From the NCBI GenBank assembly GCA_041482015.1, contig JBGPCZ010000004.1:13027-77026 (forward strand): a stretch of 64,000 nucleotides of DNA, written 5' to 3'. Under the pieces are notes generated by a model. That model was given only the letters and a program-made list of their open reading frames with translations. It had not been told where the DNA came from and made no database searches. The position numbers and the translations under genes were made by a program. Below, one piece after another: positions 37,738-53,849 of the stretch (position 1 is its first letter; each line of letters starts with the position of its first letter). Origin of the DNA: Planctomycetota bacterium (GTDB taxonomy: Bacteria > Planctomycetota > MHYJ01 > JACPRB01).

Positions 37738-38295
37738 TCACGCTCTCCACTTGATGTTGCAGCCGGCGCTCGGCTTCTGGTAGGCGGGGACGGGCTTGTC
37801 GGCCAGCACGAGGTCGATCGCGGCGCGGAGGTCCTGGCCGGTCACCGGGATGCCGTTGCCGGGGCGGCTGGAGTCGAACTGGCCGCGGTAGACGAGCGTG
37901 CGCGCCGCATCATAGAGAAAGAAGTCGGGCGTGCAGGCCGCCTGGTAGGCGCGCGCGACCGCCTGCGTCTCGTCGTGGAGATACGGGAACCGGTAGTCCT
38001 TCCCTTTCGCCTCGACCGCCATCTTCTCGGGCGAGTCGTCGGGGTAGCCGACGGCGTCGTTGGCGTTGATCGCGACGATCGCGAGGTCCCTCTTCTCGTA
38101 GTCCTTCCCGAGCTGCACCAGGCCGTCCTGCACGTGCTTGACGTACGGGCAGTGGTTGCAGATGAACATCACGAGGAGCCCCTTCTTCGCCTTGACGTCG
38201 GAGAGCGCGACGCGCCGGCCGCTCACCGAATCGGTCAGCGAGAAGTCGGGCGCGGGGGTGCCAAGGGGGTTCATCGCGGACGGGGTGAGTCCCAT
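37738..38295 (-). CDS. Thioredoxin-fold redoxin (AhpC/TSA-like thiol-disulfide oxidoreductase, CNHC motif)
   Basis: APDFSL.D..G..V.L, then LLVMFICNHCPYV. No signal peptide. Confidence 0.75.
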   Translation of the reverse strand: MGLTPSAMNPLGTPAPDFSLTDSVSGRRVALSDVKAKKGLLVMFICNHCPYVKHVQDGLVQLGKDYEKRDLAIVAINANDAVGYPDDSPEKMAVEAKGKDYRFPYLHDETQAVARAYQAACTPDFFLYDAARTLVYRGQFDSSRPGNGIPVTGQDLRAAIDLVLADKPVPAYQKPSAGCNIKWRA

Positions 38296-38326
38296 GGTTC
38301 TTCCCTCGAAATCATGGATGGACTGA

Positions 38327-38500
38327 TTACCGCGTGGATCCCGTCGGAGTCGGTGATTCCGAGGGCGTCACAGCGGCCGCCGCAGCCTTGCGCTGGGCCT
38401 CGAGCCTGGATTCGCGGCGCATGGTGCGGACGATGTAGAAGGTGATCGAGCCCATCAGGGTGTAGATGAAGGCGAGAAGGATGTAGATGGAGTATCTCAT
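38327..38500 (-). CDS. Small single-pass membrane protein (57 aa), not in the ORF track
   Basis: My translation: MRYSIYILLAFIYTLMGSITFYIVRTMRRESRLEAQRKAAAAAVTPSESPTPTGSTR. One TM helix followed by a basic stretch. Lies 31 nt upstream of the redoxin on the same strand. Weak RBS. Confidence 0.35.
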   Translation of the reverse strand: MRYSIYILLAFIYTLMGSITFYIVRTMRRESRLEAQRKAAAAAVTPSESPTPTGSTR

Positions 38501-39388: not shown

Positions 39389-40435
39389 ATGACCTCCTGC
39401 GACATCTGGAGCCAGGCCAAGAGCGGCGGCTGAGCCGCCAAGCTGAGCCCGCAGGTCCTGCGGGAGCTCGTCCAATCGATCTCGCCGAAGGGTCACCCCG
39501 ACCTCCTGGTCGGCCTGAACCCGTCGGACGACGCGGCGGTCTACCGCGTGACCGACGAGATCGCGATGGTCCAGACGGTCGACTTCATCACCCCCATCTA
39601 CCACGACCCTTACCTGTACGGACAGATCGCGGCGGCGAACTCGCTCTCGGACGTCTGGGCGATGGGCGGCCGGCCCGTCACCGCGATGAACATCTGCTGC
39701 TTCCCCGCCAAGGGAGTGGACACGGAGACGCTCGCGAAGATCCTCCAGGGCGGCCTTTCCAAGATCGAGGAAGGGGGCGCGGTGCTCGTCGGCGGCCACT
39801 CCGTCCGCGACGACGAGCTCAAGTACGGCTGCTCGGTCACCGGCTTCATCCACCCGAAGAAGATCGCCCTGAAGGGCGGCGCGAAGGCGGGCGACCGGCT
39901 GATCCTCACCAAGCCCCTCGGGAGCGGCGTCCACGTCACGGGAGCCAAGCGCGGCCTCCTCCCCGACGAGAAACTGCGTCGCGTCATGGAGACGCTCGCC
40001 CAGCTCAACAAGACGGCCGGCGAGACGATGATGGAATTCGAGGTCCGCGGGGCGACCGACATCACGGGCTTCGGCCTGGGCGGCCACGGCCTCGAGATGG
40101 CCCGCATCGCCCGGCTCGGTTTCCGAATCCACGCGGACTCGCTGCCCCTCTTCCCCGACACGATCCCGCTCCTCGAACAGGGCCTGACGACGGGCGCCAC
40201 CCCGGGCAACCTCGCGCTCATCCGGGACGGGATGAAGTACGACGCGGCCGTCACGGTGGCCGAGCAGGGCCTTTTCAGTGATCCGCAGACGTCGGGCGGG
40301 CTCCTGATCGCGATCCGCGCGAAGGATGCGGAGGCCCTTCTCAAGACGCTCCACGAGCGCGGGGTGAAGGACGCGAGGATCATCGGCGAGGCATTCGCCG
40401 CCGACACGCCCCACCTCCACGTGGTGAAAGGATAG
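39389..40435 (+). CDS. selD: Selenide, water dikinase (selenophosphate synthetase), selenocysteine-containing (UGA 39431..39433)
   Basis: One TGA interrupts an otherwise open frame. The read-through N-terminus SGG-U-AAKLSPQVL...DDAAVY matches the SelD glycine-rich loop. The rest is typical SelD (DFITPI..DPY..G.IAAANSLSDVWAMGG, PQTSGGLL). Confidence 0.8.
39445..39469 (+). other. Candidate bacterial SECIS hairpin for selD
   Basis: GAGCCCGCAG-GUC-CUGCGG(GA)GCUC starts 11 nt after the UGA. Its apex GCAGGUCCUGC resembles the E. coli fdhF SECIS apex GCAGGUCUGC. Confidence 0.55.
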
Positions 40436-45974: not shown

Positions 45975-46138
45975 GACCAGTTCCTCCCTACGGTTACGTG
46001 GAGATCCGCTCTCAAGAGTGGACCCGGAGGGTATCAGTCCCCGGTCCCGGGTGTCAAGAAAAGCGGCCCACCCCCGAATTGTTAAGAGGGGTCCTTTTCA
46101 CTTACCCCCGTCTTCGCTTTCGGGTAAGGTTATTGTCC

Positions 46139-49100
46139 ATGGGCGTCAGCCGCCGGGATTTCCTTAAGCTCTCCGCGGCGGGCGCGTTCGTCACGCCCTT
46201 CGGGTTCGATCTCACCCCCGCCCTCGCCGAGGCGAAGAAGTTCAAGATCGCCCGCACCACCGAGACCCGCTCGATCTGCCCCTACTGCTCCGTCTCGTGC
46301 GGCGTCATCGTCCACACGCGGGGCGAGGGAAAGAACACCCAGCGGCAGATCGTCCACATCGAGGGCGACCCGGATCACCCCGTCAACCTGGGCACGCTCT
46401 GCCCCAAGGGCGCCACGCTCAAGCACTACGTCGACAACGACCGGCGCCTCGACCGCGTGCGCCACCGCGCCCCCGGCGCGAGCGACTGGACCTTCATCTC
46501 GTGGGACAAGGCGATCGACATGATCGCCCAGCGGATCAAGAAGACCCGCGACGCGGACTTCATCGCGAAAGACAGGGACGGCCGCACCGTCAACCGCCTC
46601 GACTCGATCGCCGCCATCGGCGGCTGCACCGACACGAACGAGTTCAACTGGCTCTTCCAGAAAGTCGCGCGGGCCTGGAGCATCGCCCACCTGGAGCAGC
46701 AGTCGCGGATATGACACGGTCCCACGGTGGCCAGTCTGGCCCCCACCTTCGGACGCGGCTCGATGACGAACGGATGGACCGACATCCGGAACACCGATGT
46801 CGTCCTCTGCATGGGCGGCAACCCCGCCGAGAATCACCCGTGCGGGTTCAAATGGGCGATCGAGGCCAAGAAGAAGCGGGGCGCGAAGATCGTCTGCATC
46901 GACCCGCGCTACAACCGCACGGCCGCCGTCTCGGACTGCTTCGTCCAGATCCGCTCGGGGAGCGACATCGCGTTCCTGGGCGGACTCATCCGCCAGGCGA
47001 TCGAGGACAAGCTCTTTCACGAGGAGTACGTCAAGCTCCACACGAACGCTCTCTTCCTCCTGGAGCCCGGGTCGGAGCTCGGGACCGACGGGCTCTTCGG
47101 TGGATTCGATTCCGAGGCGAAGAAGTACGACAAGTCGAAATGGAAATACCAGCTCGATGAAAAGGGGCTCGCGAAGCGGACGGCCTCGCTCGACGATCCC
47201 GCCTGCGTCTTCCAGCACCTGAAGCGCCACTACTCCCGCTACACGCCGGAGGTCGTCGCCGATATCGCCGGCTGCACGAAGGAGGATTTCCTCAAGGCCG
47301 CGGCGATCATCAACTCGACCGGCACGGCCAGCCGAGCGGGGACGATCATGTACGCGCTCGGCTGGACGCAGCACTCCACGAGCGTCCAGATCATCCGCGC
47401 CGCGGCGATCCTCCAGCTCCTCCTCGGCAACATCGGCCGCGCGGGCGGCGGCGTGAACGCGCTCCGCGGCCACGCGAACATCCAGGGGGGCACCGACCAC
47501 GGGGTCGCGTACCACGCGCTCCCGGGCTACATGGCGATCCCGCGGGCCACCGACCTGGACGTCGCGACGTACCTCAAGCGGATCACGCCGGAGTCGCTCT
47601 CGGCCACGTCGATGAATTACTGGGCCAACGCGCCGAAGTTCTTCGTCTCGCTCATGAAGTCGATGTACGGCGGCGCCGCCACCGAGAAGAACGAGTGGGG
47701 CTTCCACTGGCTCCCCAAGATCGATCCCGCCGTGAACTACTCGTGGGTCTACATCTTCGACAAGATGTACAAGGGCGAGATCAAGGGGTTCATCGACTTC
47801 GGCATGAACCCCGTCGCGAACGGCCCCAACACCGAGAAGATCATCGCCGCGCTTTCGAAGCTCGACTGGATGGTGATCGCGGAGGCGTTCGAGACGGAGA
47901 CCGCCTCCTTCTGGACCGTCGCCAAGGAGTCCCCGAAGACGGAAGTCTTCATGCTCCCGGCCGCGATCTTCGCCGAGAAGGACGGCTCGTTCACCAACTC
48001 GTCGCGCTGGGCGCAGTGGAAGCACAAGGCGACGGAGCCCCCCGGCGAGGCGAGGACCGACCAGGAGATCCTCGCGCGGATCTTCGTCCGGGTCCGCGAG
48101 CTCTACGAGAAGGAGAGCGGGGCGTTCCCCGACGCGATCCGCGCGCTCGACTGGTCGTACAAGAACCCCTACGCCCCGTCGCTCGAGGAGATCGCGAAGG
48201 AGATCAACGGCCGGGATCTCGCGACCGGGAAGCAGCTCAACGCGTTCAGCGAACTCAAGGCCGACGGCACGACCGCGAGCGGCAACTGGCTCTACTGCGG
48301 GAGCTTCACCGAGGCCGGCAACATGATGGCCCGGCGCGACCCGCGCGACCCGTCGGGCCTCGGACGGCACGAGAACTGGGCATGGAACTGGCCGATGAAC
48401 CGTCGCGTCCTCTACAACCGGGCGGGCGCGGACGCCCAGGGAAAACCCTGGGACCCGACGCGATCGGGCATCACGTGGGACGGGTCGAAGTGGATCGGCG
48501 ACGTGCCCGACCTCAAGGCGGACAGCAAGCCCGAGGACGGGCTCGGCGCGTTCATCATGCTTCCCGAGGGCGTGGCCAAGCTATGGGCCCCGGACTTTGC
48601 CGACGGCCCCTTCCCCGAGCACTACGAGCCGATGGAGCACCCGACCGAGGAGAACCCACTCCACAAGCAGACGACGAGCCCCGTCGCGCCCGTCTTCAAG
48701 AGCGACATGGACCGGCTCGGAACCCCCAAGGAGGGCTACGACATCGTCGCGACGACCTTCCGGCTCACCGAGCACTTCCACTACTGGACGAAGCACGTGG
48801 CGCCGGCCGCGATGCTGCAGTCGGAGTTCTTCGTGGAGATCCCCGAGGGCCTGGCCCTGGAGAGAGGGATCCAGAACGAGAACCGCGTGCGCCTCTCGAC
48901 GCCGCGGGGGTCCATCGAAGGGCGCGCGCTCGTGACGAAGCGCATCCACGGAATGAAGGTCGCCGGGAAGACCGTGTGGCAGGTCGCGATCCCGATCCAC
49001 TGGGGCTTCCAGGGGCGGACCGAGAAGGGGAACGCCGCGGTCAAGGGCGGCCGCGGCCCCATGGCAAACCTGCTGACGGCGAGCGTCGTCGACCCGAACT

Positions 49101-49156
49101 CGTTCACGCCCGAGTACAAGACCTTCCTCGTGAAACTGGAGAAGGTCTCGTCATGA
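46139..49156 (+). CDS. fdnG: Formate dehydrogenase-N/O type alpha subunit, TAT-exported, selenocysteine-containing (UGA 46712..46714)
   Basis: RRDFLK signal and CPYCSVSCG Fe-S motif. ...QSRI-U-HGPTVASLAPTFGRG matches E. coli FdnG ...ARV-U-HGPTVASLAPTFGRG. Listed ORFs 45998..46714 and 46727..49156 share the frame. Confidence 0.9.
46726..46747 (+). other. Candidate SECIS hairpin for fdnG
   Basis: GGUGGCCA-GUC-UGGCC(CCC)ACC starts 11 nt after the UGA. UGACACGG... and the GUC-containing apex parallel the E. coli fdhF element. Confidence 0.6.
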
Positions 49157-50730
49157 GCGGGGCCCTGGAGATCAAGAACACGAGCGCGACGGGCGCGCAC
49201 ACCACCGTGCGCGAGGACGACCAGCTCTGCATGCTGATCGACACGACCACGTGCATCGGCTGCAAGGCCTGCGAGGTGGCGTGCGTGGAGTGGAACGACC
49301 TCCACATCGAGCCCGAATACGGCCAGCGGCTGCTCCACTCCTACCAGACGATGGCGGACATGACGCCCTCGTACTGGAACCTGATCAAGTTCGACGAGAT
49401 CGTGGTGGACTCCCAGCGCCAGCCGCCTCCCGTCGCGGCCGGCGGGGGATTCCTCCCTTCCGCGTTCGCGACCGGGGAGGTGGCGCCCTCCGGCGAGGCC
49501 GTGATGATGCTCATGCGCAAGGACATGTGCATGCACTGCGCGGAGCCGGGCTGCATGATCGCCTGTCCCGCGGAAGGAGCCATCGTCCAGTACACCAACG
49601 GGATCGTCGACTTCCAGCAGGAGAATTGCATCGGCTGCGGCTACTGCATGACAGGCTGCCCCTTCAACATCCCGAAGTTCGACGAGAAGTCCCAGCGCGT
49701 CTTCAAGTGCACCATGTGCAGCGATCGCGTTTCCAACGGCCTTGGGCCGGCGTGCGTGAAGTCGTGCCCCACGGGCTGCCTTGAGTTCGGCACCAAGAAG
49801 GAGATGCGCCACCACGCGGAGCACCGCGCGGACCAGGTGAGGAAGGACGGCTTCCCGAAGGCGGACGTGTACGATCCGGCGGGCGTCGGCGGGACGGGCG
49901 TGATCTACGTCCTCCACCACGCGGACCGGCCCGAGCTTTACGGAAACCTGCCGCGCGAGCCGAAGATCGACCCGCAGATCCGGTTCTGGAAGGGCCCCCT
50001 CAAATGGGTGGGCGGACTCGCGTTCGGCGCGTCGCTCGTCGCGGCCGCGGTCCACTATCTCACGTCGGGGCCGCGACGGACCGAGTCCCACGCGCCGCCG
50101 GCGCCGGCGGCCCCGAAGAAGGAGATCGTCCGCTACACGCTCTTCGAGCGCCTGCTCCACTGGACGGTGGCGTTCACGTTCCTCTACCTGTCGCTCACGG
50201 GGCTGGCGATCTTCACGCCGAAGCTCGCATGGCTCATGAGCGTGTTCGGCGGCGGGCAGGTCGTGCGCGCGTGGCATCCGATCGTCGGCGCGGTGTTCGT
50301 CGGCGCGGTCCTCATCCAGTTCTTCAAATGGTTCAAGGACCTTCGAATCACGCCCGACGACCGCGTCTGGCTCAAGCGCATGCGCGATTACCTCGCGGGT
50401 CGCGACGAGAAGGTGCCGCCGACCGGCCGCTTCAACGCGGGGCAGAAGCTCCTCTTCTGGACGCAGGTGATCCTCGGCCTCGTGCTCCTCGCGAGCGGCA
50501 TCCCGGTCTGGTTCCCGAAGGAGTTCTCGCGCGATCTCCGGCTCTGGTCGATCCTCGTCCACTCCGCGTCGGCGGCGGCGGCGATCCTCTCGCTCGTCGT
50601 CCACATCCACATGGCGGTCTTCATCACCAAGGGCGCGGTCCGGGCGATGACCGAGGGGAAGGTGAGCGAGGAGTGGGCGCGCCACCACCACGGCAAGTGG
50701 GCGGACGAGAAACTCGGCCCTCCTGCATGA
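49153..50730 (+). CDS. fdnH: Fused formate dehydrogenase beta (4x[4Fe-4S], FdnH) and gamma (cytochrome b556, FdnI) subunit
   Basis: The N-terminal half has ferredoxin Cys clusters (CIGCKACEVAC, CMHCAEPGCMIACP, CIGCGYCMTGCP, CTMCSDR). The C-terminal half aligns with E. coli FdnI (HWTV, FNAGQK, HIHMA, EGKVS..WA..HH). One uninterrupted frame. Confidence 0.85.
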   Translation: MSGALEIKNTSATGAHTTVREDDQLCMLIDTTTCIGCKACEVACVEWNDLHIEPEYGQRLLHSYQTMADMTPSYWNLIKFDEIVVDSQRQPPPVAAGGGFLPSAFATGEVAPSGEAVMMLMRKDMCMHCAEPGCMIACPAEGAIVQYTNGIVDFQQENCIGCGYCMTGCPFNIPKFDEKSQRVFKCTMCSDRVSNGLGPACVKSCPTGCLEFGTKKEMRHHAEHRADQVRKDGFPKADVYDPAGVGGTGVIYVLHHADRPELYGNLPREPKIDPQIRFWKGPLKWVGGLAFGASLVAAAVHYLTSGPRRTESHAPPAPAAPKKEIVRYTLFERLLHWTVAFTFLYLSLTGLAIFTPKLAWLMSVFGGGQVVRAWHPIVGAVFVGAVLIQFFKWFKDLRITPDDRVWLKRMRDYLAGRDEKVPPTGRFNAGQKLLFWTQVILGLVLLASGIPVWFPKEFSRDLRLWSILVHSASAAAAILSLVVHIHMAVFITKGAVRAMTEGKVSEEWARHHHGKWADEKLGPPA

Positions 50731-51506
50731 CCAACGCCTGGGAGCGGCGGCTCCGTCGCGCCGTGCAGCTCGAGAAGGAATGGCCGTTCGCGGCGGACAT
50801 CCTCCGACTCTACCGGTCGCTCCTCCCCATCCAGGCCAGGATCCACGCCGAAGCAGCGGGCAAGTTCCCGCCCGATGAGACCTTCACCCCCTGGTTCATG
50901 GATCGCCTGTGCGACCTGGTCGACCGGGTTGCGGCGGAGGGGCCCGGGACGCTCGCCGAGGAAGCCGCCCGGTGGCGGGGGCACGTCGAGGATCGGTGGT
51001 GGGAGGAGCACGGCCGGCCACATCAACCGGACCCGTTGTGCGAGGATTGCCCGAGTCCCCTCTACCACTTCCTGGGGACGGTCTTCGACCAGCCTCTCAA
51101 GATGAGCGTGCGGCCGGAGAATTTCCCGGCCGCAAGCGGTGACACGGGCTGCCCGTCCTGCGGGCGGTCGCCCCTCGTCAGCGTGCTCCGGGAGGACCGG
51201 GTGGCGGAGACGGTGAGACGCTCGCTCGTGTGCTCGTTCTGCACGACCGAGTGGGAGTTCCCCCGCGTCGTCTGTCCCAAGTGCCGGGAGGAGCGGCCTG
51301 AAAAGCTGCCGCGCTTCACAGCGCTGGAGATCCCGTGGATGAGGGTCGACGCCTGTGACACCTGCCGGGGTTATCTCAAGTCGGTCGATCTGACGAAGAA
51401 CCCCGACGCGGAACCGGTGGTGGACGAACTGGGGTCGACGCCGCTCGACGTCATCGCACGAGAGCAGGGGTATTCGAAACTGGCGGCCAACCTCGCGGGA
51501 GTCTGA
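50727..51506 (+). CDS. fdhE: Formate dehydrogenase accessory protein FdhE
   Basis: Four CxxC pairs (CPSC, CSFC, CPKC, CDTC) with FdhE spacing. ATGA overlap with the upstream gene. Confidence 0.75.
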   Translation: MTNAWERRLRRAVQLEKEWPFAADILRLYRSLLPIQARIHAEAAGKFPPDETFTPWFMDRLCDLVDRVAAEGPGTLAEEAARWRGHVEDRWWEEHGRPHQPDPLCEDCPSPLYHFLGTVFDQPLKMSVRPENFPAASGDTGCPSCGRSPLVSVLREDRVAETVRRSLVCSFCTTEWEFPRVVCPKCREERPEKLPRFTALEIPWMRVDACDTCRGYLKSVDLTKNPDAEPVVDELGSTPLDVIAREQGYSKLAANLAGV

Positions 51507-52031
51507 TCAGAGCTTCGGAAGCGCCTCGGTCTTCCCCTCGTCCTTCGCGGTCGGCTTGCCGTCCTTGGGGTGATGCGCCTTCTCGGCGGACGCCTGGCGC
51601 TTGCGGGCGCGAAGGACGAGCCAGACGAACGCCGTCGCGAGCCCCACGGCGAGCGGCGCCACCGTCAGGATCATCTCCTTGATCAGCATGCCGATCCCAC
51701 TCAGGACGATCGCGAAGAACGCGATCACGCCCCCGATGACGATCGTGTTCTGCTTCGACTCGCTCTGCGAGACGAGCTTCTTCACCATCTCGGGTACGGC
51801 CGCGATCTCGACGGTCGAGCCCTTCTTGACCGGCTCCGCGGCCGCGGGTGCGGGGGCGGACGCGGAAAGTGCCACGGGCGGCGGCACTTCCCCCACCGTG
51901 AGGAGCTCGATGTTGCCGTCCTTGTGATGGCGGATCCGCGTCCGGCACTTGGGGCACTTCATCTTCCGCCCGGCGAACTCGTCGCCCACCGAGCAGATCG
52001 CCTTGCACGACGGACAGGTGAACGTGATCAA
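51507..52031 (-). CDS. Zinc-ribbon membrane protein (hypothetical)
   Basis: N-terminal CPSC...CPKC ribbon, Ala/Pro linker, and two TM helices. Confidence 0.6.
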   Translation of the reverse strand: MITFTCPSCKAICSVGDEFAGRKMKCPKCRTRIRHHKDGNIELLTVGEVPPPVALSASAPAPAAAEPVKKGSTVEIAAVPEMVKKLVSQSESKQNTIVIGGVIAFFAIVLSGIGMLIKEMILTVAPLAVGLATAFVWLVLRARKRQASAEKAHHPKDGKPTAKDEGKTEALPKL

Positions 52032-52131
52032 TGACGGCCTCCTCGACCCTCTTGTCTTGAACCTCGGGTGCCGCCGCCGGTTGCGGCGTCCTTACTATAT
52101 ACTAGTTGCGGACGTTTGAAAGAGACCTGTC

Positions 52132-52647
52132 ATGAAGCTTCTCCACTCCCTCTTCCTCTCTCTCTTTCTGGCCCTTCCCGGCCTGCCCGCCGCCGCCCAG
52201 GAATCGAAAACCGCGCGGGAGCAGCTCAAGGAATCCCTCGCAAAGGCGAAGGAGGGAAAGAAGCGCGTCCTCCTCACCTTCGGCGGGGCCGGCTGAAGCT
52301 GGTGCAAGATCTTCGAGGCCTGGAAGGCCCGGGAGGAGGTCGCCCCGATCCTCGCAAAGGACATCGTCAACCTCTACATCGACACGTCCAAGGTCGCCGG
52401 CGGGAAGGACCTTCACGCGTCCTATCCGAAGAGCCAGAAGGGCGGCATCCCCTGGTTCGTCATCCTCGACGGCGAGGGCAAGGAGCTCGGGGATTCGAAC
52501 GGCCCGAACGGAAACATCGGATGCCCCGACACCGACGAGGAGATCGCGGCGTTCATCGACCTTTTGAAGAAGGTCCGCCTCTCAATGACCGACGACGACC
52601 TTGCTGCGCTCAAAAAGTCGCTGGTGGCCCGCCGGGAGAAGAAATGA
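52132..52647 (+). CDS. Secreted thioredoxin-fold selenoprotein with U-x-x-C redox motif (UGA 52294..52296); absent from the ORF track
   Basis: ATG 52132 to TGA 52645 is open except for one TGA. Signal peptide MKLLHSLFLSLFLALPGLPAAAQ. RVLLTFGGAG-U-SWCK occupies the position of the Trx C-x-x-C (WC..CK). GIPWFVILDGEGKEL is typical of the Thioredoxin_7-like fold. GC3-rich codon usage continues across the TGA. Confidence 0.7.
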
Positions 52648-53849
52648 TCGCCTCCCTTCTCCTCGCCACAATGCTCGCGCAGACCGACGTCCGCGACCTG
52701 TTCGAGAAGATGCGCTCGGAGCGGATCGAGGAGCGCGACGACGCCTCACGCGCGCTCCTGGATCTGGACGCGCCGCCCGTGGCGGAGATCGAGAAGGCTG
52801 CGGCCTCCGAGCGGGACGCCGAGGTGCGCGGCCGTCTCAAGGGCGCTCTCGAGGAAATCGGCCGGCGGGAACGAGTGGCCGCAGTGCGTCCGCGGACCAG
52901 GCCGCTGACCCTCGAGTTCCACAATGAGCCCTTCGACGAGGCGGTACGTAAGAGCCTGGGCCCATTCGGACTCACCTCCGTCGAGTGGAGCGAGGAGGTC
53001 GGCCGGCGGCGCGTCACCCTCCATCTCAAGGGAGCCACTTTCTGGCAGGCGGTGGAGGCTCTGGGCCGCGCCGCCTCGGCGTATGGTTCGAGGGGAGCTT
53101 CGCGCTGGCACTTTCAGGACAGGGCGCCCGCGATGGACTCGGTCGGCGGGTTCGATGTCTCAGAGGCGCTGATCTTCGCCGAGCAGAATGGCCGGGAGAA
53201 GCATGGCGACGGGCCGTGGAAGAACGACATCGTCGTCCAGGTCCTCCTTCCCCCCGGTTTCTCCCCCAGCTCGGCCCAGGTTGAAGACGGATTGCTGCTC
53301 GACGACCAGGGCCATGCCATCGAAGCGGATCGCACTCCGGGAGGAACGACCAACCGAGTGCCGGGAGGCGTGGGAAAGATCCGGGCCATGGAATTCGCCG
53401 TCCTCCCGGAAAACCTGAAGGCGGCCAGATCCCTCCAGGTCAAGGGGACGCTCCTCCTCCGGTACCCGCACGACCTCGAGCGGCATGAGTTCGCGCTCCA
53501 GGGCCTCAAGACGCCCCTCTCGGTGAAGTTCCAGGGATCGTCGCTGACCATCGCAAGCATCCAGATCGACCCGGATCGTCAATGCCAATTGAACTTTGTC
53601 GGCCGGGCGGAGTCCGCGAGACTTCTGGTCTTCTCCACGCTGGAAGACGAGAGAGGGAAGTGGCTCTCGGACCTTGACCATACGAATCTGGAGTCTGGCA
53701 GCTCGGTTTCGGGGAACTGCTCGGCCTCCATCCCGCCCGGCGCCGCTCCCGCCCGGTTCGTCCTGAACCGGATCCTGGGCGAGGACGAAGTCCGCATCCC
53801 CTTTCACCTGAAGAACGTACCCCCGCCTCCGCATCCGCCGAAGGGCTGA
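52644..53849 (+). CDS. Hypothetical secreted protein with N-terminal HEAT-like module
   Basis: ATGA overlap with the Trx-like gene. Start taken at Met193 of listed ORF 52068..53849, because the upstream part is another frame of the Trx-like gene. Confidence 0.6.
   Translation: MIASLLLATMLAQTDVRDLFEKMRSERIEERDDASRALLDLDAPPVAEIEKAAASERDAEVRGRLKGALEEIGRRERVAAVRPRTRPLTLEFHNEPFDEAVRKSLGPFGLTSVEWSEEVGRRRVTLHLKGATFWQAVEALGRAASAYGSRGASRWHFQDRAPAMDSVGGFDVSEALIFAEQNGREKHGDGPWKNDIVVQVLLPPGFSPSSAQVEDGLLLDDQGHAIEADRTPGGTTNRVPGGVGKIRAMEFAVLPENLKAARSLQVKGTLLLRYPHDLERHEFALQGLKTPLSVKFQGSSLTIASIQIDPDRQCQLNFVGRAESARLLVFSTLEDERGKWLSDLDHTNLESGSSVSGNCSASIPPGAAPARFVLNRILGEDEVRIPFHLKNVPPPPHPPKG

Follow-up and report, generated by a model that had tools for sequence, protein, structure and literature searches.

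Thioredoxin-fold proteins with a U-x-x-C redox motif, in which U is selenocysteine (Sec), form the commonest class of bacterial selenoproteins (PMC13188914; PMC1088965). In the catalogued members, Sec stands in for the N-terminal Cys of the motif, Cys homologues are abundant, and a selenocysteine insertion sequence (SECIS) lies in the coding region right after the UGA codon; gene callers truncate or miss such genes. A 2026 compilation of prokaryotic selenoprotein families lists Trx, a "thiol:disulfide interchange protein" (PF13098), a "thiol-disulfide isomerase-like" family (cd02966), and DsbA-, DsbG-, and redoxin-like families, together with a Trx7/PDZ family carrying C-x-x-U. Here we describe a gene with the same general properties, referred to below as the Sec-Trx gene, at positions 52132–52647 of a 64-kb stretch of DNA from a Planctomycetota bacterium (contig JBGPCZ010000004.1; this whole stretch is called the window, and all coordinates are window positions). 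An original prediction, made from the sequence alone, had proposed an unlisted, secreted thioredoxin-fold selenoprotein at this site. Our analysis indicates that 52132–52647 is very probably a genuine Sec-encoding gene for an exported thioredoxin-like protein.

The reading frame that starts at ATG 52132 is interrupted by a single stop, TGA 52294–52296 (codon 55), before it ends at TGA 52645–52647, giving 171 codons, exactly as had been proposed. The translation around the internal TGA is TFGGAG-U-SWCKIFEAWKA (that is, KKRVLLTFGGAG, the stop, and then SWCKIFEAWKA), and U-SWCKIFEAW does lie at the thioredoxin motif, with the TGA in the place of the first Cys of C-x-x-C. No listed open reading frame (ORF) covers the full frame: of its two segments, only the first, of 54 codons, appears in the mechanical ORF list, and the one after the TGA has no ATG, GTG, or TTG that would give at least 50 residues and none usable before codon 145. 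The Sec-Trx gene is therefore invisible to ordinary gene callers.

Formal analysis of codon composition upheld the claim that third-position G+C (GC3) bias continues unchanged across the TGA. GC3 in the 52132 frame was 0.80–0.97 in every 30-codon window, without a break at the TGA, and the G+C contents of the first, second, and third codon positions (.69/.43/.83 upstream of the TGA and.58/.39/.90 downstream) were typical of real genes in both segments. The gene is overlapped in another frame by a long ORF (52068–53849), whose upstream part is non-coding-like (.88/.61/.41). Followed by GC3, the coding frame changes near 52644, in the ATGA noted in the original prediction, where the stop of the gene overlaps the next start. 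The G+C content of the window is 67%, and a promoter and terminator scan of 51950–52750 found none. At the N-terminus, manual inspection revealed MK, a 16-residue hydrophobic core, and P-AAA followed by Q, and all relatives of the same short form start with MKL and a hydrophobic run. The "clean" signal peptide that had been claimed thus has its hydrophobic core and A-x-A site, the epithet "secreted" being a reading of the N-terminus by hand; the Sec-Trx product would be exported via this predicted signal peptide.

The comparative evidence carries the identification of the TGA as a Sec codon. Homologues are 50–72% identical to the Sec-Trx protein; their source names are "hypothetical protein," "thioredoxin family protein," "DUF255 domain-containing protein," or "YyaL," none of which refers to selenium. 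In a search covering 5.8 billion proteins, about ten full-length relatives (159–166 residues, 51–61% identical) have C-G-W-C where the window reads U-S-W-C. A further set of about 40 database "proteins" of 98–117 residues starts at [V/M]FEAWKAR, right after the redox motif, which is the output expected of a gene caller at an in-frame TGA. We then compared DNA from 160 loci, 80 from species-representative genomes and 80 from metagenomes, with the matched frame translated through stops. Among the 128 loci with a locatable motif, the redox column was TGA in 45 and TGC or TGT (Cys), within C-x-x-C, in 83. In the subfamily of the window gene itself, 25 of 29 members were Sec forms (the short form, MKL...KKKVFLTFGSPG-U-GWCTVFEAWKARP).

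The N-terminal 54 codons and the downstream part were contiguous through the TGA in the 45 Sec loci and through Cys in the 83 others, and in every short-form Sec gene a conserved signal-peptide-plus-helix N-terminus ran through the TGA into the C-terminal part. Among 25 short-form Sec genes, the ratio of nonsynonymous to synonymous substitution rates (dN/dS) came to 0.33 over the 30 codons before the TGA and to 0.25 over the 100 codons after it, so the coding signal persists on both segments under purifying selection. A pseudogene, a sequencing error, and a pair of unrelated ORFs are all excluded by TGA loci that are contiguous and under purifying selection on both sides. The Sec forms fell into at least six sequence clusters from two phyla, Planctomycetota and Acidobacteriota. 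Several of them (L037, L040, and L055/56) are nearer to Cys forms than to any other Sec form, which suggests repeated switches between Sec and Cys within the family.

Most family members are twice the length of the window protein, at about 310–320 residues (L003–L060 and P0054–P0125), with the thioredoxin domain at the C-terminus, preceded by an extension of about 150 residues. The extension ends in "...LDAEGK...xxLLxxHQA," which recalls the end of a second thioredoxin-like domain, and Sec is also found in long forms (L003, L004, L105, and L107–L115). Two isolated oddities of the motif were seen: a Schlesneria metagenome-assembled genome (L050) has C-G-U-C, the Trp codon TGG being replaced by TGA, and a protein homologue (P0002) has Gly at the Sec column (GGGWC). 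Both are probably errors or inactivated copies.

We next turn to the recoding signal, which the original prediction had left open while naming two weak SECIS candidates, at 52317–52329 and 52333–52353. Both are present at these positions, and only the first is conserved. It forms the upper stem, GGCC (52317–52320) paired with GGCC (52326–52329), and apical loop, UGGAA (52321–52325; alternatively a GGA triloop closed by a U-A pair), of a longer hairpin whose lower stem pairs UUCG (52312–52315) with CGGG (52330–52333), leaving A52316 bulged. The lower stem of the window copy includes two G-U pairs, and an alternative lower pairing exists. Published criteria for a bacterial SECIS (bSECIS) are an apical loop of 3–9 nt with G in its first two positions, an upper stem of 4–16 bp, a distance of 16–37 nt from the UGA, and a minimum free energy (MFE) of at most −7.5 kcal/mol (PMC13188914). 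The window hairpin agrees with all four, with G at loop position 2, a spacing of 24 nt, and an MFE of −13.0 kcal/mol, and its loop fits N1-G-[G/U]-N-N2, the pattern of the bSECISearch consensus, with N1-N2 pairing (U-GGA-A).

A hairpin at the same offset was present in all 40 distinct Sec-form sequences and mostly missing from the Cys forms. Contiguous stems were 4–8 bp long in the Sec forms versus a mode of 3–4 bp in the Cys forms (p = 2e-8), and the local MFE was −11.8 versus −7.7 kcal/mol (p = 2e-11), both p-values being inflated because the Sec forms are related by descent. Complete pairing of the 7-bp stem core was seen in 27 of 40 Sec forms and in none of the 79 Cys forms. For covariation, 33 Sec forms were aligned without gaps and in codon register. 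A contiguous 8-bp stem model paired only 62.5% and was replaced by the bulged-A model, in which 90.5% of cells were paired versus 50–57% in controls slid by one column; the covariation score was 0.149 versus at most 0.046 in the slid controls, and 0 of 500 shuffles reached 0.149. Compensatory changes were found at two stem pairs, 24–36 and 21–38 (GC/CG/GU/UA and CG/GC/GU). In addition, one synonymous site is highly informative: the lower stem is closed by an Arg codon that is CGA in 25 of 32 Sec forms and 1 of 38 Cys forms, versus a CGA share of 9% among the other Arg codons of these genes; the window copy uses CGG at this place, which still pairs as G-U. The second candidate, GAGGA-N11-UCCUC at 52333–52353, was rejected, its paired cells amounting to 48% in Sec forms versus 49% in Cys forms. 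Together, these comparisons indicate that the first candidate forms the top of a conserved hairpin that is specific to Sec forms and is predicted to act as a SECIS.

Other genes in the window indicate that the organism uses Sec. The selD gene, for selenophosphate synthetase, itself encodes a selenoprotein, with TGA 39431–39433 in the context KSGG-U-AAKLSP (a U-x-x-K motif) and a hairpin, CCCGCAG-GUC-CUGCGGG, at 39448–39464. An ordinary ORF call for selD would begin after this TGA and lose the active site. The formate dehydrogenase gene fdhA (45998–49156) is split by TGA 46712–46714, and a SECIS_3 element (RF01989) lies directly at the UGA; the two halves of FdhA match TIGR01553 at positions 2–194 and 196–1009, which puts Sec at model position 195. 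The presence of selD and fdhA as genes with UGA-encoded Sec is the basis for this indication. The fdhA and Sec-Trx hairpins both have a GGCC/GGCC upper stem; the fdhA loop is A-GUC-U, with GUC where Sec-Trx has GGA, and the Sec-Trx loop lies about 5 nt farther from the UGA. The Sec-Trx, fdhA, and selD elements share one architecture, a small apical loop on a GC-rich stem 19–25 nt past the UGA.

With U replaced by C, the Sec-Trx protein matched Thioredoxin_7 (PF13899; 32.4 bits versus a gathering threshold (GA) of 27, residues 30–113) and Thioredox_DsbH/DUF255 (PF03190; 30.3 bits versus GA 27, residues 33–119), both across the TGA; the second match covers only profile positions 27–116 of 163. 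The strand typical of Thioredoxin_7-like folds that had been proposed is present as GIPWFVILD, the most conserved block of the family: no family alignment shows variation at G105, P107, or W108, and in two of them F109 does not vary either. In the family-specific G-N-I-G-[C/F/Y]-P motif, the variable residue is commonly Cys in Sec forms and is also Cys in some Cys forms; the remaining sequences have Phe or Tyr.

The structure was modelled on a proxy, the closest full-length Cys homologue (P0001; 61% identical, context TFGGAG-C-GWC). The AlphaFold2 model, built from an alignment of 61 sequences, has a thioredoxin fold with a predicted local distance difference test score (pLDDT) of 92.6 and a predicted template modelling score (pTM) of 0.85. 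In this model, C46, the residue of the Sec/Cys column, stands at the start of helix α1 (47–56) directly after strand β1 (residues 36–41), and P98, the proline of G-I-P-W-F, immediately precedes strand β3 (99–103). A fold search with the model found 3fk8, a Xylella "disulphide isomerase," as the best neighbour in the PDB (E = 6e-7, template modelling score 0.74), followed by 3f9u (a DsbD-like cytochrome c biogenesis domain) and 7tkv (a Thioredox_DsbH protein), with 2ju5 (Chlamydia DsbH) and 2fwf and 1uc7 (DsbD-γ) also among the neighbours; all the top neighbours are thioredoxin-fold proteins. A profile search against PDB sequences gave a weak match to 3fk8 alone.

DsbH (2ju5), DsbD-γ (2fwf and 1uc7), and 3fk8 are the nearest solved structures and, like the Sec-Trx protein, are exported domains of the Thioredoxin_7/DUF255 type. 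They have C-x-x-C at the place of U-S-W-C. Unlike Sec-Trx, all of them are Cys proteins, identity is only 24–28%, and the Sec-Trx protein has an extra C-terminal helix and the GNIG[CFY]P motif. Judged from the model, the likeness to DsbH and DsbD is at the level of the fold only. NCBIfam models for DsbH and DsbD (NF043050 and NF001419) scored 13.9 bits versus a cutoff of 190 and 10.4 versus 330 on the Sec-Trx protein.

These observations suggest the following scheme. The gene would encode a 171-residue pre-protein composed of a signal peptide and one thioredoxin-fold domain of the Thioredoxin_7/DUF255 (DsbH- and DsbD-γ-like) type. UGA 52294 would be recoded by SelB and Sec-tRNA(Sec), guided by the coding-region SECIS at 52312–52333, whose loop lies 24 nt downstream, so that selenium would be inserted at this codon. 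Sec would take the place of the N-terminal nucleophilic Cys of C-x-x-C, giving a U-S-W-C centre in which it would be a more reactive attacking nucleophile than Cys. The exported product would most likely act as a periplasmic thiol-disulfide oxidoreductase. By analogy with its closest structural neighbours, we lean slightly towards catalysis in the reductive direction, as in DsbH and DsbD-γ, rather than an oxidase or isomerase role.

Three other explanations of the locus were weighed. The UGA might be read as Cys or Trp, by near-cognate or SelB-mediated misincorporation, which would yield an ordinary thiol enzyme, and selenium supply could modulate the residue that is inserted. We regard this as improbable, since the TGA lies in a classic Sec/Cys active-site column, the hairpin has the SECIS consensus at the right distance and resembles the elements of fdhA and selD, and TGA is an ordinary stop in this genome, even as the terminator of the Sec-Trx gene itself. 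Still less probable, to a degree that makes it barely credible, is a split into two products, a secreted peptide of 54 residues and a C-terminal fragment with its own initiation. Public gene calls in relatives do consist of C-terminal fragments starting at V/M-FEAWKA, but these apparent starts are the Val or Met codon of [VM]FEAW, the second segment in the window has no ATG, GTG, or TTG before codon 145, a fragment starting after the motif would lose strand β1 and the whole redox centre, and the Cys forms are single polypeptides. Finally, the locus might be a Cys-form gene whose TGC was turned into TGA, either by a nonsense mutation or through an error of sequencing or assembly. This would take one base change, and isolated motif oddities do occur in the family (L050 and P0002), but this explanation is effectively refuted by the comparative data: 45 independent loci, drawn from many samples and two phyla, have TGA at exactly this column, both flanks are under purifying selection, GC3 is unbroken, no other frame disruption occurs, and the hairpin is Sec-specific.

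Several results count against a Sec-encoding gene with a reductase product, or limit the weight of the evidence for it. For the hairpin, an Rfam scan of 52200–52450 at the gathering threshold, and also at E ≤ 10, gave no match to a SECIS model, RF01988–RF01991 included. Rfam SECIS models are built from particular gene families, and the missing match is uninformative for a new one. The hairpin also folded no better than dinucleotide shuffles (52294–52343, z = −0.30). The same holds for the Rfam-validated SECIS of fdhA (46712–46761, z = −0.07), with z = −0.61 for selD (39431–39480); as a validated element also fails, the test of MFE against shuffles is uninformative at 67% G+C. Permuting synonymous codons within genes made the hairpin just a little weaker (mean z = −0.76; window fraction 0.19), from which it follows that the hairpin is fixed mainly by the peptide F-E-A-W-K/M-A. 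This peptide is kept in the Sec forms, and most Cys forms differ there (EDWMAR, DAWLAR, and similar). Of the eight stem pairs, four do not vary and so cannot contribute to the covariation signal, and the shared descent of the Sec forms has to be borne in mind for the p-values above.

Of the Sec machinery, selD and the UGA-containing fdhA are in the window, but no tRNA gene, and hence no tRNA-Sec, was found in its 64 kb, nor was selA or selB found among the approximately 30 of its ORFs that were scanned. The structure was predicted for the proxy P0001 and not for the window protein, and the reductase role rests on structural analogy. On balance, a genuine Sec-encoding gene remains by far the favoured explanation.

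The features of the locus and of its surroundings are collected in Table 1.

Table 1. Features of the Sec-Trx gene and of other genes in the window
Feature	Position	Strand	Evidence or remark
Sec-Trx selenoprotein gene, complete (predicted)	52132–52647	+	ATG start, TGA stop 52645–52647, 171 codons including Sec55
Predicted Sec-type signal peptide, residues 1–22, MKLLHSLFLSLFLALPGLPAAA followed by Q	52132–52197	+	Hydropathy and A-x-A site, inspected by hand
UGA read as selenocysteine (predicted), residue 55	52294–52296	+	Same column as the first Cys of C-G-W-C (83 Cys forms) and as a TGA (44 other loci)
Redox motif U-S-W-C, residues 55–58	52294–52305	+	C58 invariant across the family
Bacterial SECIS hairpin (predicted)	52312–52333	+	bSECIS criteria, Sec-specific conservation, covariation
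G-I-P-W-F, residues 105–109	52444–52458	+	cis-Proline loop and start of strand β3
Family-specific motif G-N-I-G-C-P, residues 127–132	52510–52527	+	Alignments; Cys131 is Cys, Phe, or Tyr in relatives
selD (selenophosphate synthetase)	39390–40435	+	TIGR00476, 349.8 bits, cutoff 125
fdhA SECIS_3 element	46709–46767	+	Rfam, 67.2 bits, GA 63; apical hairpin GGCC-AGUCU-GGCC
Zinc-ribbon protein gene	51507–52031	−	Divergent from Sec-Trx gene; N-terminal CPSC...CPKC, C-terminal hydrophobic stretch, probably membrane-spanning
Downstream 401-codon ORF	52644–53849	+	ATG overlaps Sec-Trx stop (ATGA, 52644–52647)

The original prediction had placed the Sec-Trx gene next to a formate dehydrogenase (FDH) locus. 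This adjacency is real: the locus, at 45998–51506, comprises fdhA, fdhB fused to fdhC, and fdhE. In the closest relative (L001), the retained gene order is fdhA...fdhE, zinc-ribbon gene, Sec-Trx gene, and GNAT gene; FDH proximity is conserved in this relative only, and the soil relatives share none of the neighbourhood. Because the adjacency is not kept any further, it gives no evidence of a functional link. The zinc-ribbon gene is kept beside the Sec-Trx gene in L001 and in one further locus (L085), at 57–63% identity, and its product could be a partner or regulator of the Sec-Trx protein. The 401-codon ORF, whose product has a hydrophobic N-terminus, has no Pfam or NCBIfam match, and a homologue of it lies beside none of the 160 related loci. 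Close to selD, a gene on the minus strand (37738–38367) encodes an AhpC/TSA-redoxin-like protein. This is a Cys form, with C-N-H-C as its motif, rather than a selenoprotein.

We also asked how the Sec-Trx family relates to the known selenoproteins. Its best Pfam families are PF13899 and PF03190, unlike those of the catalogued U-x-x-C families, and PF13098 (Thioredoxin_2) stayed under threshold (16.3 bits, E = 0.013, GA 27); the 2026 compilation has no entry based on PF13899 or PF03190. None of the NCBIfam selenoprotein models matched the Sec-Trx protein, the best being TsoB with 16 bits versus a cutoff of 805. The Trx7/PDZ selenoprotein (NF041199) resembles it in having a Thioredoxin_7-type domain with Sec in the redox motif, but its Sec is C-terminal in the motif (C-x-x-U), whereas that of Sec-Trx is N-terminal (U-x-x-C) and no PDZ domain is present; the NF041199 model gave no match even at E ≤ 10. 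Text searches of the literature, outside supplementary tables and subscription journals, found no prior description of the family. Its taxonomic home is the Planctomycetota and Acidobacteriota, mostly from soil metagenomes. It is an even call whether the gene and its 44 TGA relatives constitute an uncatalogued selenoprotein family of exported Thioredoxin_7/DUF255-type oxidoreductases in soil and freshwater Planctomycetota and Acidobacteriota.

Since U-x-x-C thioredoxin-fold selenoproteins are the commonest kind known, the Sec-Trx protein adds to a very well-known kind and changes no concept. Standard annotation misses the gene in this genome and truncates it in dozens of public metagenome records, which a family model would correct. 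Such a model would also extend the selenoproteome of the Planctomycetota and Acidobacteriota, phyla barely mentioned in the selenoprotein papers that were searched. The locus also shows clearly how a SECIS constrains the residues that follow Sec, through FEAW[K/M]A and the rare Arg codon CGA. Finally, the many natural Sec/Cys pairs in one small exported thioredoxin fold would make the family convenient for asking what benefit Sec brings to a periplasmic redox enzyme.

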